Positions 835-7,431 are shown, counted from the stretch's first letter. The stretch: 15,720 nt of DNA from Candidatus Bathyarchaeia archaeon (GCA_049517415.1 JBEKSC010000038.1:1-15720); one strand, 5' to 3'. Program-made: numbers and translations. Notes: a model not told the origin generated them from the letters alone.

Positions 835-1875
835 CTATCGTTGTCGGTGCATGAAGAATGCAGTCGGTATAAGTGATAAGAGCAGTGAAGGAAGATGGTG
901 ACGCAACTCATATCTCAACCGACCATTCAGTTCGCCAGGGAACCTGGTAACGTAGCGAGGTACGGGTGCATGCGTATCAAGGGATACAGTCTTCTCATGC
1001 AAAGAATCAATTGATCCGTCTAGGAACCCAATGCCGCAGTGACATCCCCACGACAGCGCGGAGTACCATATCCGGTATGATCCATCTTGCTCCCTTAGGA
1101 AACTACTCCGATAAATCGCACGGTTATCCCATCCAAACAAAGAGGGTTTCATGACAGGATTCTTGCTGGTCGGTTTAAACATGAGGCCGTCTTTGGAGGA
1201 GAGATGAAAGAGTCGTGTCCGTGTCGGATCGTATTTCTTGGGGAAAGCGGCAACGAGCGCTTCGTAAGCCTCCTCGACTTTCAAGACGTCGATATGCCAA
1301 GGAACATGTTGTGGGATTTCAATGTCACATGCTCGCTCATTTCGTAGATTGGTGAGGTTATAGCCTTCGCGATGAACGAGTTCAGAATGAACCAAGTTCT
1401 TGCTGGCGTTCATGCGGATGAACCACTCCTCCCAAATGCCCTCACTAACCTGGTAAGTAGGGGACACTGCTCCCACATCTTCGTGTATGACCTGTGGTTT
1501 ACTCCAGTGGAAATCACCCTTGCAGTTCATTGTGTTGAAAGTAACTTCATCAGTGCTCCTGCGAATAGTGAGATAGATAAGATGAAGGCGCCCTGAGTCA
1601 TAGACAAGTTCGGGATCTGCATGATGCATGTCAGGATTATCCGGCGGCAACACGAGAGGATCAGGGGTTTCGGCGAGCCTTTGCCAATCCAAGCCATTAT
1701 CGCTTGCACGTATGGTCGGATTCTCAAGACGATCATCCGTCAAGGGATAGGGCGTGAAGACCATGAAGTAAGGGTAAGCGGCGAATTGCGTGGGGACGCG
1801 AATGACGTCGGGATGCACGTGCTCCCAGCAATTGCCCAAACTTATGATCTTCAACGGCGCAGATGCATTCATCAT
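835..1875 (-). CDS. Five-bladed beta-propeller glycoside hydrolase-like protein (GH43/GH32/GH130-like superfamily)
   Basis: 346-aa ORF with repeated blade motifs: VHPDVI, YFMVFTPYP, ENPTIRASDNGLDW (Asp-box-like), HADPELVYD, PWHIDV, LSSKDGLMF, WDNRAIYRSSF, YRIWYSA. Starts 8 nt after the stop of the upstream GNAT fragment, so probably operonic. Confidence 0.7.
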   Translation of the reverse strand: MMNASAPLKIISLGNCWEHVHPDVIRVPTQFAAYPYFMVFTPYPLTDDRLENPTIRASDNGLDWQRLAETPDPLVLPPDNPDMHHADPELVYDSGRLHLIYLTIRRSTDEVTFNTMNCKGDFHWSKPQVIHEDVGAVSPTYQVSEGIWEEWFIRMNASKNLVHSELVHREGYNLTNLRNERACDIEIPQHVPWHIDVLKVEEAYEALVAAFPKKYDPTRTRLFHLSSKDGLMFKPTSKNPVMKPSLFGWDNRAIYRSSFLREQDGSYRIWYSALSWGCHCGIGFLDGSIDSLHEKTVSLDTHAPVPRYVTRFPGELNGRLRYELRHHLPSLLLSLIPTAFFMHRQR

Positions 1876-1883
1876 CTAGCCCT

Positions 1884-2604
1884 TCAAAACGTGTCCACAT
1901 CCTTCGAGGAAATGCGCCATGAAGAGTGAAGATGAATGTTTCCGTCGAGAGTTCTTGAGGTTAGTGACCGCACGATAAGCCGTTGCGTTCCGTGTCTGAA
2001 GTAACCGCATGATTTCAGGGCATGCGCAACGCCTCGATCATTCGTGACGGCAATACGCGCAGGCACTCGCAACTCCTTTGCGCGACGAGTTGCTCTAGAT
2101 GTAACTAACTCCAGTGCACGCCCGTCTGATCCACACATATCAATTAATGATATTTCTCCCCAATCATTGGTTCCAAAAGCAGCCCAAGCCCTGAGCTTTC
2201 CATCACAATAGGCCGAAAACCAGACATAACTGCGCTGCGATTTTGAATCAAACCTCCACTTGAACCAATCCAAGGAGCGCCCGATCCGGCAAGTTCCCCC
2301 AATATCACCCATAGCTGTCAGCTCAGCCAAGCATAGCAATTCCTCATCTGTCCGCTTCTCCGATCGAATTTCTATCCCAAGAGGTGCAGCGTTGTTACCG
2401 CTCGGTAACAAATGAACGCCCAGAGACGCGAAGTACTTCATTGGCTTAGACATTGACGTAATCCCAGTGGGATTGAGCACACGCGCAAATTCAGGAACGC
2501 CGCCGTATGATCCCAATTCAATTTATGTACCTGCGCATAATAGGCATTCTCGTTAGGAAAGCCGTACAACACCTCGATTCCCATCAAGGCAGCCATCCCT
2601 ATGC
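1884..2604 (-). pseudogene. Middle and C-terminal part of a split two-domain GNAT N-acyltransferase, with a 1-nt frameshift near 2505
   Basis: 2596-2505 translates as MAALMGIEVLYGFPNENAYYAQVHKLNWDHT (GFPN motif, not in the ORF track). After one missing base (gat cat ac ggc ggc gtt) it continues GGVPEFARVLNP...RSLDWFKWRF...LKSCGYF...WRISSKDVDTF, colinear with RNRQYLNWRY...LKNNGFI...WFVQIGDSDMR of the intact paralogue at 3205-4290. Confidence 0.85.
2584..2604. repeat. Left copy of a 21-bp imperfect direct repeat at the insertion junction
   Basis: tcaaggcagccatccctatgc, 18/21 identical to 4487-4507, all three differences transitions. It lies where GNAT homology starts; the same frame hits TAA a few codons further upstream. 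Confidence 0.85.
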
Positions 2605-2622
2605 TTGTGATCCGGCGGTCGG

Positions 2623-2629
2623 CTTAAAT
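2623..2629. promoter_or_regulatory. Candidate archaeal TATA box (CTTAAAT / ATTTAAG), possibly bidirectional
   Basis: Short AT-rich island in a GC-rich stretch, about 30 nt from both the maoC ATG (2657, +) and an ATG in the GNAT 3' fragment (2596, -). Confidence 0.3.
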
Positions 2630-2656
2630 CCCCGAGTTCGGGAAGAACAACCCTCA

Positions 2657-3100
2657 ATGAAGGCGAGAAGGACGACGGCGCTTCAGCCTGGCAAGAAGTA
2701 TCGCCAGATCGCGGTGGGCGAGCGTTTCCAGGAGACGACCACAATTACCGACCAGATGGTCCGGGAGTTTGCACGCGCCACGGGGGATGCTAACCCCGTG
2801 CATCTTGATGACGCCTACGCAGCGACTACTCTGTTCAAGCGCCGCATTGCTCATGGGATGCTCGTCGCTGGTCTCATCTCGAGAGCTCTTGGCATGAGCT
2901 TCCCAGGTGCTGGCACGATTTATCTGCGCCAACAGCTTGAGTTCATTCGGCCGGTCTTCATTGGCGATGTCATCACTGTACAGCTAGAGGTGGTCGAAAA
3001 GATCGACGAGAAGAAGGCTATCCGGGTCACCACCACTTGCAGCAACCATAGCGGCAAGAGCGTGCTCGCTGGCGAGGCGATCGTTATCCCTCCCCGCTGA
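2657..3100 (+). CDS. maoC: MaoC/PhaJ-family (R)-specific enoyl-CoA hydratase (hotdog fold)
   Basis: 147 aa from ATG 2657. Hydratase-2 motif FARATGDANPVHLDDAYAATTLFKRRIAHGML with the D-x4-H catalytic dyad, then FPGAGTIYLRQQLEFIRPVFIGD. The ORF-track start at 2507 overlaps the GNAT remnant and is unlikely. Confidence 0.92.
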   Translation: MKARRTTALQPGKKYRQIAVGERFQETTTITDQMVREFARATGDANPVHLDDAYAATTLFKRRIAHGMLVAGLISRALGMSFPGAGTIYLRQQLEFIRPVFIGDVITVQLEVVEKIDEKKAIRVTTTCSNHSGKSVLAGEAIVIPPR

Positions 3101-3204
3101 TTTCTGCAAGTCGCGGCATTGAGCGTAGCGCTTTTTCTGTTTCCTTGGATCCGCCTTCACATGCAAGCTCTGGCTAAGGCTAGTCCGATTCCCCGAAGCA
3201 CCCG

Positions 3205-4290
3205 TCATCTCATATCGGAGTCCCCGATCTGGACAAACCAGTTCTCACGCTTTGCTAGAAACTCCTTGGGAACGTGAAGAGAGCTCGAACATGCACAAAA
3301 GTGTCCACTATGCCAGAATATGAAACCGTTATTCTTCAGAACATGCCGATAAGTCTCATTTGCGATTAGGGGATAGAGGATGGCATCTGTCTCATTTGAT
3401 CGGCAGCTTTCAACAGCCATTGAAAGCAGGCCGTGCATTGTGGCTTCTGAGGTAGCTATTAGGTCAAAGATGTAGCTCAACCTCAGATCGTCATGCTTCT
3501 TGTGTTCCAAAACGATGTAGCCGGACATGTCCCCGGCTTCCCTGGCAACAAAGATACGGTAACTGTTGCCCGGGCTACCATATCGCCAGTTGAGATATTG
3601 CCGATTTCTAGCTACCGCTATCGGATACTCGCCGGACACCATGCCCCACAGCACGCTCACACGATCGTCGAAACGAGCCGCCACGTCGACCTCGACCTCC
3701 TCTCGGGGAGGCAGCTTGCGAGTTCTGAAGAGGACCTTGTCGAAAGCGACCGCGGCTCCCATGCCTAGGATCGTAGATAGCAGCTTGTTCCTGACCTTGA
3801 GCCGAACAGCTTTGCTCCAATTAAGTGACTTGAGCCCTACTTGCATGGTCCCAAGATCGAACCAGCCTGATTTCATGTGACCCGGATAGGCTGCGGCGTT
3901 GGGAAACCCGAAAGTAATGTGCAGTCCTGCTTTTGCAGCTTCATCGAGTGCACGTCGCTCTAGGGCGGAAAAGATCCCTTGATGCCGATAATCAGGGTGA
4001 GTCATGACATCTATGTTCTGAAGAACCTTGAGTACTTGGTCGCCGACCTTCATATCGAAAGGAACGAGTGGATATTGTCCCACTATCTTGGTGCCATGCT
4101 CGGCGATCCATATACTGGGAGCTCCTGCAGGATTCTCTTTGTACATCCAACGCCACCATCTCAGCCACTGCTCCCAATCAGATTCGGTTTCTGGGTACAG
4201 AGCCTTGCAAAGCTCCCAAATCCCAATTTCGTCCTCGGTTTCATAAGCTCTGATGAGCCATTTAGCACCCAATTGCCCTTTCATCTCCAA
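3205..4290 (-). CDS. Two-domain GNAT family N-acyltransferase of the type found in polysaccharide loci
   Basis: 361-aa intact ORF (TTG 4290, or ATG 4284): WLIRAYETEDE, WMYKENPAG, IAEHGTKIVGQY, motif A DVMTHPDYRHQGIF, FGFPNAAAY, and a second domain with RNRQYLNWRY and terminal GDSD. Confidence 0.9.
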   Translation of the reverse strand: MEMKGQLGAKWLIRAYETEDEIGIWELCKALYPETESDWEQWLRWWRWMYKENPAGAPSIWIAEHGTKIVGQYPLVPFDMKVGDQVLKVLQNIDVMTHPDYRHQGIFSALERRALDEAAKAGLHITFGFPNAAAYPGHMKSGWFDLGTMQVGLKSLNWSKAVRLKVRNKLLSTILGMGAAVAFDKVLFRTRKLPPREEVEVDVAARFDDRVSVLWGMVSGEYPIAVARNRQYLNWRYGSPGNSYRIFVAREAGDMSGYIVLEHKKHDDLRLSYIFDLIATSEATMHGLLSMAVESCRSNETDAILYPLIANETYRHVLKNNGFIFWHSGHFCACSSSLHVPKEFLAKRENWFVQIGDSDMR

Positions 4291-4486
4291 AGCGCACTCT
4301 GCAAGTCCCCAGAAGCCACGGAGCAGAAGTCCGAATCGTCTGCTGAACTTTTGTCTCGCAGTAGCCTAATATTTGTTTTTCTGCCTACCGCGACGGAAAC
4401 GCGTTGGCTTGGGCAGTTCTTGGAGTCAAAACTCGGACTTGCGTCTGGCGTAAGTGGGGTAGACCTGTTGAACGTTTCCTTTCGAG

Positions 4487-4507
4487 TCGAGGCGGCCATC
4501 TCTATGC
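4487..4507. repeat. Right copy of the 21-bp imperfect direct repeat
   Basis: tcgaggcggccatctctatgc encodes (C)IEMAAS on the minus strand, the last GNAT-like residues of the N-terminal fragment. It is 1903 bp from the left copy. Confidence 0.85.
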
Positions 4508-4775
4508 AGGTTTTTGCTAAGGCAGTGAACATGCCTTGATTGCGATAATCGGGGTGAGTCATGGCGTCAAACGCCTGGGCACTATACACATTGTCTGCTC
4601 CGAGACGAAGCTGTGTAGGCATCAGGGCGTATTGCCCAACTATCTGACCTGAGCACTCAGCAACTACAATGATGCTCTGACCAGCGGGATTGTCGTGAAA
4701 TTTCCAGGTGAAGTGTTCTTTAGGGCGGGTCGAGTGAAAGACAGCGGTAAATAGCTCGCGTATGGCAATCCTCAC
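4487..4775 (-). pseudogene. N-terminal part of the split GNAT N-acyltransferase
   Basis: IAIRELF...HFTWKFHDNPAG...VAECSGQIVGQY...DAMTHPDYRNQGMFTALAKTCIEMAAS aligns with the intact paralogue. Homology stops at the repeat and the remainder of ORF 4281-4847 is read-through into the insert. The first beta-strand (cf. WLIRAYETEDE) appears lost. Possible GTG at 4775. Confidence 0.85.
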
Positions 4776-4800
4776 GTAAAATGGCCCTTCGGGAATCGAC

Positions 4801-6021
4801 TTGAACCTCAAGACCCTGAGAATCCTCGTAATCTGGGATATCACCATAGGGCTCGAATTGAACGCTAACTACAAGATTAGACAGCTAGCAGAGCTCGCGA
4901 ACCGAGGGCATACTGTCACCTGGGTCGCGGCAAGAACCGCGACGCCGATAAGAGATCTCGGGGTCCGGACGTTTCACCTTGAGACACTCTGTATGCGGAA
5001 GGTTGTTCCGCTCGTATCTTTCCTACTATTCCAGTTATTTTCCGTTCGACACCTGATACCCTCTTTGAATCGTTCAGATGCCATAATCTTAGAGGTGCGC
5101 ACTGTGCCCATATTATTTCCTTTTCTTATGATCCGCCGTCTGGGCAGCTCGTCTCCCGCGTTGTTTCTTCGAGTATCTACTAATCCTGTTCAAACAGGAG
5201 GTCACTTGCGTACCCTCGCCATGCACTTTGTCGACACACTTTCGATCAAGCTTGCATCAAAGTTCTTCGACAAAATCCTCTTTATTTCTCCCATGATGGC
5301 ACAATCGTATTCGACTCGGTGCAGGATTCCTAGGCCCAAGATCGGGGTGTGGCCTTCCGCCGTAGATGCAAGCTTCTTCGAGTCACGCTCGAAAGCTAGA
5401 GTCAATCGTTTGCGTAAGGAGATCAGTTCTCCGGATCGGTTGACCGTACTCTATCACGGGGGCCTTTCGACGGAAAGAGGAATCATGGATACGGTTCGTG
5501 CCTTCAAGATTTTGACTGATGAACACTTTCCGGCCAAGCTTGTTCTACTGGGCAGCGGGCCCGCAACGAAAGAGATTTCCGAGTACGTCACAACAAACAA
5601 CTTGGAGGGTGTAGTTCAACTCATAGGACCTGTCAGCTACTCAGAGGTGCCTGACTATATCGCTGCCTGCGATGTGGGAATAATACCATGGCCGGACCAC
5701 CCATGGTGGCGGTACCAATGTCCCCTCAAGCTGTTGGAGTATTTGGCATCTAGTAAGCCGGTTATTGTGTCGAATATTCCCGCCAATGCGTGCGTGGTCG
5801 GCACGGCTCCAGTCGCAGTTTACTTGAGAGGGACCAGCCCGCGCGAAATCGCGAACGGAGTGCGTGCTTTCTCACTTCGTAGGGACCAGCTTAATCCGAG
5901 ACTAGGCCGACAAATTGCGTTCGCTTTTTCTGTCGAGAACATCGCAGATTTAATTGAGAGTGAAATAACTTCGGTGATTCACCGATCATCTGCTCGTGTG
6001 TCAGGTGCATCAGAACACTGA
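4801..6021 (+). CDS. Glycosyltransferase family 4 (GT-B)
   Basis: 406 aa: ELANRGHTVTWV, VWPSAVD, VLYHGGLSTERGI, LVLLGSGP, IGPVSYSEVPDYIAACDVGIIP, CPLKLLEYLASSKPVIVS. Confidence 0.93.
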   Translation: MNLKTLRILVIWDITIGLELNANYKIRQLAELANRGHTVTWVAARTATPIRDLGVRTFHLETLCMRKVVPLVSFLLFQLFSVRHLIPSLNRSDAIILEVRTVPILFPFLMIRRLGSSSPALFLRVSTNPVQTGGHLRTLAMHFVDTLSIKLASKFFDKILFISPMMAQSYSTRCRIPRPKIGVWPSAVDASFFESRSKARVNRLRKEISSPDRLTVLYHGGLSTERGIMDTVRAFKILTDEHFPAKLVLLGSGPATKEISEYVTTNNLEGVVQLIGPVSYSEVPDYIAACDVGIIPWPDHPWWRYQCPLKLLEYLASSKPVIVSNIPANACVVGTAPVAVYLRGTSPREIANGVRAFSLRRDQLNPRLGRQIAFAFSVENIADLIESEITSVIHRSSARVSGASEH

Positions 6022-6913: not shown

Positions 6914-7431
6914 CAACAAATAACCGAAAAGTAACAGGTCATTTCATCAACCGAAGACGTACCGTTACCCGCAAATCTTACGGCTAGGTGATGGTCCTTT
7001 ACAACCCCTTTCTGAGCAGGCACCTCCTGCTGCCCAGTATGCCAACATACTCCGTAGGATAATTTTTCGTCAGTATATTGGGATTGTTTCAGACACTAGC
7101 CCCTATTTTGCGAAGAGAGAAGCTATTAGAGGGTTGTTGGACGACTGAGAGATGATGCTCTCGGTGATGGGCGGCCAGACATTTCGATGATTAAGTTGCA
7201 AGCAGGCAGCAGGACTAAAAGCTTCGATCCTTTTGTTTTCATCTGGGATGATTAAACTGGGTTCAATTACCATGTTATCGTAATCTCAGGATAACTCGAT
7301 TTCGAGCACCCCGCCTTGTATCCTTATACACAACGCATGGCGAAAGACAGCGTGGAAATGCCTTGGATGTTCATATTCCATCTCTGGAACACTTATCTGC
7401 CTTAAGGGAACCCATCCTTTGTTGATGATCA

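Follow-up and report, generated by a model that had tools for sequence, protein, structure and literature searches.

An acyltransferase gene split by an acyltransferase-hydratase insert in a surface-glycan locus of an uncultured Bathyarchaeia archaeon

The 15,720-nucleotide stretch of DNA analyzed here (the window) is the whole of contig C38 (JBEKSC010000038.1), a 15.7-kb contig within the 2.65-Mb metagenome-assembled genome of a Candidatus Bathyarchaeia archaeon (GCA_049517415.1). A Pfam scan of 12 window open reading frames (ORFs) identified the contig as a surface-glycan gene cluster, which comprises two GT4 glycosyltransferases, a methyltransferase, a beta-helix protein, a DUF2206 membrane protein, an epimerase, and a flippase. 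Inside this cluster, a minus-strand GNAT gene, named GNAT-A, is interrupted by a 1,882-bp insert (2605-4486) that consists of two convergent genes, the acyltransferase gene GNAT-B and a MaoC-type hydratase gene, each with its own upstream region. A first-pass annotation had described this arrangement as a GNAT gene split by a nonautonomous cassette that is bounded by direct repeats, knocks out the resident gene, and delivers its replacement. The split was found with the coordinates and peptides claimed, and the repeat was located exactly at both junctions; the insert itself is probably not a dedicated mobile cassette.

The N-terminal part of GNAT-A (N piece, 4488..4847, minus strand) starts with the ATG at 4847, and its homology to orthologues spans 4766-4488. 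It lies within an ORF (4847..4281) whose GNAT-A part ends with ALAKTCIEMAAS at 4488 (...CIEMAAS); past this position, the frame continues into the insert and reaches a stop at 4281. The N piece matched Pfam Acetyltransf_9 (PF13527) with an E value of 1.2e-13 and the hidden Markov model (HMM) of the GNAT-A family with an E value of 5e-47. On the other side of the insert, the GNAT-A reading resumes as IGMAALMGIEVLYGFPN from 2602 in frame -3, which is kept through a middle piece (2504..2583, minus strand; MGIEV...WDHT). A 1-base frameshift at about 2504-2506, in agreement with the extra base first placed near 2505, leads into frame -2 and the C piece (1884..2504, minus strand), which comprises 206 codons and the stop, contains no internal stop, and matched the family HMM with an E value of 1e-93. 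With the ATG at 4847 as its start, the rebuilt gene would have about 353 codons and not the 329 or so estimated earlier. Both junctions carry a 21-bp sequence. The N-side 21-mer (4487-4507) holds the codons IEMAAS and the first base of the next codon and represents the state of the orthologues; the C-side 21-mer (2584-2604) reads IGMAAL and carries both amino acid changes. The two 21-mers agree at 18 of 21 positions, and all three differences are transitions.

A search of a clustered protein collection with the C piece returned 26 relatives. The best full-length relative, P0002 (343 amino acids), from which P0136 differs only at the first residue, was 86% identical to the N piece (residues 18-110) and 88% identical to the C piece (residues 138-343), with the middle piece matching residues 104-137. 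All three pieces are colinear on P0002, and the two sides overlap by exactly 7 codons. In the intact orthologues, the sequence at this position is CIEMAASMGIEVLYGFPN (P0003) and CIETAASMGIEALYGFPN (P0002), with the duplicated codons present once. Together with the colinearity of the pieces, this identifies the two halves as one ancestral gene; best hits of the halves to different GNAT subfamilies, which had been named as a refuting result, were not seen. P0002, P0136, and P0003 show an uninterrupted site at the protein level, and the more distant orthologues of loci L009, L013, and L014 show it at the DNA level. Neither 21-mer has another copy with up to 3 mismatches in the 2.65-Mb genome, where by our own arithmetic about 0.05 such matches would be expected for one given 21-mer, and the genome holds no GNAT-A matches beyond the pieces described. 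It had been conceded initially that an 18/21 match could arise by chance in 15 kb. With no further copy in the genome this concern did not hold up, while the position of the repeat at both homology breaks, already named as its support, is in our reading of the sequence decisive against a chance match.

The split lies inside the first GNAT domain, directly after the coenzyme A (CoA)-binding motif helix, and neither fragment is a whole domain. A gene cut in this way is predicted to be dead, so that the proposed knockout of GNAT-A by the split is supported. Residues 1 to 17 of the orthologues have no clear counterpart in the window. At about 4767-4847 (minus strand), a pair of short, similar sequences (ITRI... 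and YVRI...) spaced by about 48 nt points to a small duplication or deletion at the 5′ end of GNAT-A; this end may carry a further lesion or may reflect natural N-terminal variation.

The region was 99.98 to 100% identical in three JGI metagenome contigs, one of them from a 236-kb contig, and all sampled words of 1700-5000 were present in 20 of the 24 public sequencing runs listed, whose samples may stem from one campaign. Four of these runs were examined at the contig level. Single Logan contigs spanned the region with 0 differences in three of them (X1, X17, and X20), and two contigs bridged both junctions in the fourth (X7). The independent assemblies thus agree to the base, which rules out an assembly chimera, a concern of the first-pass annotation. 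The joined (empty) form was not seen in the contigs of the four runs, a result that does not show its absence, since contigs drop rare variants.

The insert (2605..4486) is single copy and joins GNAT-A bluntly at both ends. Its GC content of 53.2%, versus 50.1% (standard deviation, 2.0) for the genome, falls within the top 5.6% of genome windows, and its tetranucleotide distance falls within the top 7%; the composition is only mildly atypical and not decisive. GNAT-B (3205..4290, minus strand) is an intact tandem-GNAT acyltransferase gene with a likely start at the ATG at 4284, which gives a protein of 359 amino acids, a form that also occurs as P0118 and P0122. The protein matched Pfam Acetyltransf_9 (E value of 9e-18) and retains all 29 invariant columns of a 17-sequence family alignment (A1). 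Its structural model (predicted local distance difference test [pLDDT] of 86) displays a two-GNAT-domain fold like that of the Eis-like tandem-GNAT acetyltransferases (3n7z, 2hv2, and 2i00) and N-myristoyltransferases (Foldseek E value of about 1e-15, TM-score of about 0.6), although the sequence identity is 11 to 16%; no sequence match of GNAT-B or P0002 to any solved structure was found, and NCBIfam holds no model for GNAT-A or GNAT-B. The N part of GNAT-A is 39% identical to GNAT-B. The C piece showed no significant BLASTP similarity to it (best local match with an E value of 0.64), and the GNAT-A family profile aligned GNAT-B colinearly up to model position 307. The assignment to the tandem-GNAT class is based on PF13527 scores above the cutoff for the N piece and GNAT-B, on internal likeness between N and C domains, and on the fold match. 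By these comparisons, GNAT-B belongs to the same broad family and architecture as GNAT-A, as first described, and to a different subfamily. The family is locally multicopy in some genomes; contig G202:C24 contains four GNAT-B/GNAT-A-like genes in a row.

The second cargo gene, MaoC (2657..3100, plus strand), is intact as well, runs toward GNAT-B, and encodes a 147-amino-acid protein of the (R)-specific enoyl-CoA hydratase type. It matched PF01575 (MaoC_dehydratas) with an E value of 1.2e-24 and 86.7 bits against a cutoff of 27, and NCBIfam hydratase models matched as well. The protein contains the sequence ...GDANPVH..., which we take to be the hydratase-2 motif (Asp, His), and the ATG is preceded by a TTAAAT box at a distance of about 30 nt. 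Both cargo genes were absent from all 22 genus genomes, and in 400 class genomes the best identities were 31% for GNAT-B and 45% for MaoC. The nearest relatives of GNAT-B among 5.8 billion clustered proteins were 53% identical, and the best ones in species-representative genomes came from Dehalococcoidia (43 to 44%). In the Dehalococcoidales locus L022, a GNAT-B homologue (44%) is followed 362 nt downstream by a MaoC homologue (51%); the other two GNAT-B loci with enough flank (L023 and L034) have no adjoining MaoC homologue.

Beside these genes, the insert contains a relic of the GNAT-A family. A C-domain segment, FSAYRDGNALAWAVLG (4356..4429, plus strand), was detected by tblastn, by the family HMM (E value of 0.004 among the six-frame pieces of the window), and by a 74-nt DNA alignment with a score of 48 that was matched by none of 300 shuffles. 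Its orientation is opposite to that of GNAT-A, and 57 bp separate it from the right end of the insert; it falls within the 196-bp stretch between the right junction and GNAT-B. A possible second scrap of GNAT-A type, RGIGLALARACM (3153..3204, minus strand), directly follows the GNAT-B stop and resembles the helix just before the GNAT-A break point; this match is weak, with a DNA score of 26 reached by 10 of 300 shuffles (marginal) and an HMM E value of 1.8, and the stretch also belongs to repeat family D10. The inverted relic indicates that the source locus already held GNAT-A-type genes and had been rearranged. The MaoC gene was also found in a second context: on a 1,783-nt ENA contig (P0129), a 97% identical MaoC lies downstream of a different sequence, in which the upstream frame shares only its last 14 to 15 codons with the window and its 92 preceding codons have no relative. 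The homology starts at 2612-2615, at most 10 nt from the left end of the insert. By sequence, P0129 could represent either a donor-type context or a second site of a discrete unit.

The pieces of GNAT-A have diverged unevenly. The E→G and S→L changes of the C-side repeat introduce residues unseen at both positions in any orthologue inspected, and a hyperdiverged patch of about 100 bp extends from this repeat to the frameshift near 2504-2506. Changes were counted as unique to the window where P0002 and P0003 agree with each other. The 34 residues that span the C-side repeat and the stretch up to the frameshift contained 7 such changes, and the following 204 contained 9 (one-sided Fisher p of 0.003, an optimistic value), and the controls P0002 and P0003 showed no such excess in the patch. 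In the 27 codons after the repeat, the window reads AYYAQV, whereas the 17 family members that a pattern matched carry SYHGFV or a close variant. P0003 agrees at every residue with the N-side repeat and with the final 25 residues of the N piece. In the C piece, 10 unique changes were counted, compared with 12 in P0002 and 14 in P0003. A patch that is old and decayed, flanked by two young pieces, is more readily explained by an imported remnant than by a clean duplication followed by uniform decay, and we regard this signal, obtained by protein-level comparison, as suggestive. Error-prone fill-in was considered as a cause of the patch and judged unlikely: the patch extends about 80 bp past the repeat, and 7 changes in 34 residues plus an indel look too dense for polymerase error. 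P0003, the closest relative, is called only from an internal Met, and it shares with the window an R where the other nine aligned orthologues have P. GNAT-A may already have been decaying before the insertion.

Thirteen related metagenome loci were compared, in 12 of which the state of GNAT-A could be judged. The gene was intact in eight and reduced to a 5′-truncated remnant in the other four, beside p346, the conserved downstream partner of GNAT-A. In the window, p346 (835..1875, minus strand) starts 8 bp past the GNAT-A stop, and in 9 of the 13 loci it is the gene after GNAT-A or its remnant. The remnants (L015:9852-10600, L020:9890-10102, L018:359-692, and L019:1514-1847) differ in length and have at least three different breakpoints, L018 and L019 sharing theirs. 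They lie mostly directly upstream of p346, and unrelated genes occupy the position of the N part. In L015, these are a GT4 glycosyltransferase and a putative asparagine-synthase-like N-terminal fragment (read from an MCGIAG start); in L020, a 568-amino-acid ORF was read as a putative carbamoyltransferase. No N piece was present upstream in the truncated loci, and the window is the only case that keeps both halves. The C piece was found in only one of 40 relatives, the genus relative G021, as a 30-amino-acid scrap (G021:C206:3928-4017, locus L004). GNAT-A thus looks like a gene at the edge of a gene-turnover region, in a recurrent breakpoint zone, and the remnants in 4 of the 12 loci imply that a donor of the form "variable genes plus GNAT-A remnant" is a common arrangement. 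Locus L012 contains a second GNAT-A-family copy downstream of p346 (3789-4376). In L011, a distant MaoC-like gene (25%; 7042-7398) lies between an intact GNAT-A orthologue and p346; by homology, the pairing of a putative hydratase with a GNAT-A-type acyltransferase recurs independently there.

From these observations, we infer with moderate confidence that the insert represents a one-off, recombinase-independent event in which about 1.9 kb of another glycan locus were captured by break repair or illegitimate recombination. A break would have arisen in the resident GNAT-A of a variable surface-glycan locus, and host break repair or illegitimate recombination would have captured a fragment without the help of an element-encoded or dedicated recombinase. 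A related glycan locus is favored as the source by the four remnant loci, the inverted relic, and the diverged patch, and the lack of close kin of the cargo genes in the host lineage was counted for a capture from elsewhere. Two versions of this event can be envisaged. In the first, which we prefer but propose only tentatively, an imported remnant served as a homology anchor. The incoming fragment would have ended in a short, decayed, 5′-truncated GNAT-A remnant, to which the C-side break end would have annealed, with a crossover near 2504, while the opposite end of the fragment would have formed a blunt join with the N-side end at 4486/4487. The 21 bp would then correspond to the portion of the remnant that extends beyond the break and overlaps the end of the resident N piece; such a repeat would have been imperfect from the start, and the patch would be explained. 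In the second version, which appears rather unlikely, a staggered break was filled in and left a true target duplication that mutated later.

Several points weigh against a capture of this kind. Both joins are blunt, with no microhomology used, and the N junction carries two tandem copies of the sequence CTCGA; blunt joins combined with a clean flanking repeat are a classic sign of the staggered cut of an integrase or transposase. For the anchored version, the break must have occurred within the short segment matched by the remnant. The limits of the diverged patch were picked after the data had been viewed, which makes the p value of 0.003 optimistic, and the comparison was made on proteins only. 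The pieces flanking the patch are not pristine either, with about 7 derived changes in the N piece versus 2 in P0002 past the misaligned start, as counted from the alignment. Finally, the loss of homology to P0129 at the left end of the insert is also predicted by a discrete cassette end.

In the strongest competing explanation, the insert is a discrete nonautonomous cassette that was moved in trans by an integrase from the host or a different element (a casposase or another enzyme with a 21-nt stagger), the 21-mer being a mutated target-site duplication. The blunt joins and the repeat exactly at both ends fit such an event. So does the repeat length: casposon target-site duplications of 1 to 27 nt (median, 15) are given in the available text of Krupovic et al. 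2014 (PMC4046053). Enzymes that could act in trans, for which the first-pass annotation had suggested a search, are encoded in the genome, although all of them lie on other contigs. We found four Cas1 matches (two full-length and two fragments) on C3, C8, and C9 and six tyrosine recombinase matches on C2, C3, C9, and C16. Around the Cas1 genes on C3, a palindromic site flanked by GT/CA, with a core of about 14 bp, is present in three copies (135123-135154, 143130-143163, and 151759-151783) and constitutes a candidate casposon site. The junctions of the insert do not resemble this site, and the insert has no GT/CA tips. The different setting of MaoC in P0129, with homology starting so close to the insert end, could likewise point to a mobile unit. 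Residues 45 to 71 of the P0129 upstream frame faintly resemble the N terminus of the C3 casposase, with an E value of 7e-4 in a pairwise comparison and of 1.6 genome-wide; the upstream part (residues 1 to 106) had no relative at an E value of ≤1 in the set of 5.8 billion proteins, Pfam found no Cas1 in it, and no relative of P0129 was found in viral contigs. We therefore treat the likeness to the Cas1 N terminus as unconfirmed. No paper linking Bathyarchaeia with casposons was found in the literature collection searched.

Marks of a mobile element were not detected in the insert itself. A comparison of its left end with the reverse complement of its right end revealed no terminal inverted repeat (TIR) better than in shuffled sequences, since, of 500 shuffles, 481 reached the observed score with 40 nt of the ends, 180 with 80 nt, and 137 with 150 nt. 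No hairpin or attC-like fold was found at the ends or in the spacer, where folding was weaker than in shuffles (z of +1.1 to +1.3) in a test made without a dedicated attC model. An Rfam search of 1500-5200 gave no match above threshold; three weak matches (E values of 0.045 to 0.73) were far below the gathering scores. Neither the 12 window ORFs nor 9 ORFs scanned in the left-hand 8-kb flank include a recombinase, and PF00589 was not matched. This agrees with the initial statement that recombinase and TIR are missing here. The insert carries no cas1 or polB, only GNAT-B and MaoC, and neither a transposase nor inverted ends nor several copies were found that would define an insertion sequence, a miniature inverted-repeat transposable element, or another transposon. 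Neither the insert nor its noncoding ends recur elsewhere in the genome, and the search for further copies of the 21-mer that had been suggested found none with up to 3 mismatches. Among the GNAT-B relatives from the 5.8 billion clustered proteins, of which the best is 53% identical, no near-identical copy in another setting was observed. The repeat is imperfect, with its amino acid changes on one side only and a further 80 diverged bases on that same side. The inverted GNAT-A scrap fits a chunk of a scrambled glycan locus better than a tidy cassette. Taking the single copy, the unmarked ends, the distant GNAT-B relatives, and this scrambled relic together, we consider a trans-mobilized cassette improbable, and the first-pass reading of the insert as a nonautonomous cassette is probably wrong.

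An extended form of that idea is more improbable still. GNAT-B and MaoC could constitute a recombinase-less two-gene module that a Cas1-family or unknown integrase trans-mobilizes with a 21-nt stagger and that lands preferentially in acyltransferase genes of archaeal glycan loci. If this were true, one event would kill the resident enzyme and provide the cell surface with a different acyl-transfer chemistry; the inverted relic would be the scar of an earlier landing, and the P0129 contig would be a second site. We assign a similarly low probability to a Campbell-type integration of a small circle via a shared core of about 21 bp, mediated by a tyrosine recombinase or by host recombination and leaving hybrid attL and attR sites. 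Typical att cores form direct repeats of about 20 bp, as excerpts of PMC6563490 describe, the mismatches of the 21-mer could correspond to differences between donor and target cores, and tyrosine recombinases exist in the genome. However, no integrase is located in or beside the insert, the target is a coding sequence without dyad symmetry, no tRNA was found in the 20.6-kb locus L005, and the core has no other copy in the genome. Moreover, crossover within a core leaves unexplained the divergence of about 80 bp beyond it on one side. Two separate paralogue remnants, a tandem duplication followed by deletions, or an assembly chimera are hardly credible: although the family is multicopy in some loci (L012 and G202) and truncated remnants are common in related loci, both pieces match the same orthologue colinearly, at equal identity and with an overlap of exactly 7 codons, the genome has no other GNAT-A matches, and independent assemblies agree to the base. 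We thus retain the capture of a fragment from another glycan locus as the preferred explanation.

The surroundings of GNAT-A give an indication of its function. On the left side of the window, 8 kb of sequence known from longer contigs of this population encode GT2 enzymes, an oxidoreductase-epimerase fusion, and a DegT-type sugar aminotransferase, and the presence of the latter suggests that the locus makes an amino sugar. No family match was found for p346 in Pfam or NCBIfam. Its model (pLDDT of 73) displays a five-bladed propeller-like fold, and the top fold match is the N-acetylgalactosamine deacetylase of Flavonifractor plautii (6n1b/6n1a; E value of 2e-17, TM-score of 0.70), ahead of GH43 enzymes. 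Judged from this model, p346 may be a sugar N-deacetylase that works with an acyltransferase, and a deacetylase-like protein beside an N-acyltransferase suggests N-acyl exchange on a glycan sugar. GNAT-B and MaoC now probably serve to N-acylate the amino sugar of the locus, and the new acyl group is perhaps a hydroxyacyl group, supplied as (R)-3-hydroxyacyl-CoA by the hydratase. A replacement of GNAT-A by GNAT-B in place, as first proposed, is plausible. A change of the acyl group would be at least as likely as a like-for-like replacement, given the 39% identity of the N part, the dissimilar C part, and the accompanying hydratase.

In our view, the event is an instance of gene-content turnover by illegitimate recombination in a variable surface-structure locus and thus of an already known kind; a new kind of mobile element is not established. 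The locus provides a well-documented snapshot of gene-content change in the surface-glycan clusters of uncultured Bathyarchaeia, in which one event inactivated a resident acyltransferase and brought in a different acyltransferase together with a hydratase.

An integron gene cassette usually consists of one promoterless gene and an attC hairpin. Such cassettes have been reported in Archaea (excerpt of bioRxiv 10.1101/2022.02.06.479319), and the insert shares with them the character of a recombinase-less gene unit that brings new functions. It differs in having no attC-like hairpin and two convergent genes with their own upstream regions, with no array and no intI nearby. Elements with attL and attR sites that are mobilized by tyrosine recombinases are likewise flanked by direct repeats of about 20 bp at both ends (excerpts of PMC6563490); here, integrase and tRNA target are missing, the cargo is limited to two genes, and divergence reaches beyond the core. 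With casposons, the insert has in common a flanking direct repeat within the length range given in the available text of Krupovic et al. (PMC4046053), in a genome that carries casposases. On the basis of that range, the repeat length alone is compatible with a Cas1-type enzyme, but the other defining features are missing: the insert lacks TIRs, cas1, and polB, its repeat is imperfect, its junctions are unlike the candidate site of the genome, and it is present as a single copy.

The closest parallels are found in bacterial toxin loci. Illegitimate recombination that is facilitated by homology has been proposed for displaced modules with orphan remnants in the effector-immunity arrays of the Vibrio cholerae type VI secretion system (T6SS), according to the available text of PMC5361080. 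In these arrays and at the tips of Rhs and contact-dependent inhibition (CDI) loci, one end of the exchange is anchored in conserved or homologous sequence and the other is illegitimate, and the displaced gene is left as a fragment. Related T6SS loci contain series of orphan fragments, to which the GNAT-A remnants beside p346 would correspond. The locus described here differs from the T6SS and Rhs systems in that both halves of the resident gene are kept with a 21-bp overlap and in its blunt join without microhomology. It also differs in that the host is an archaeon and the genes are glycan acyltransferases and not toxins. If the anchored version of the capture is true, a displacement mechanism mainly known from bacterial toxin loci extends to archaea and to glycan genes.

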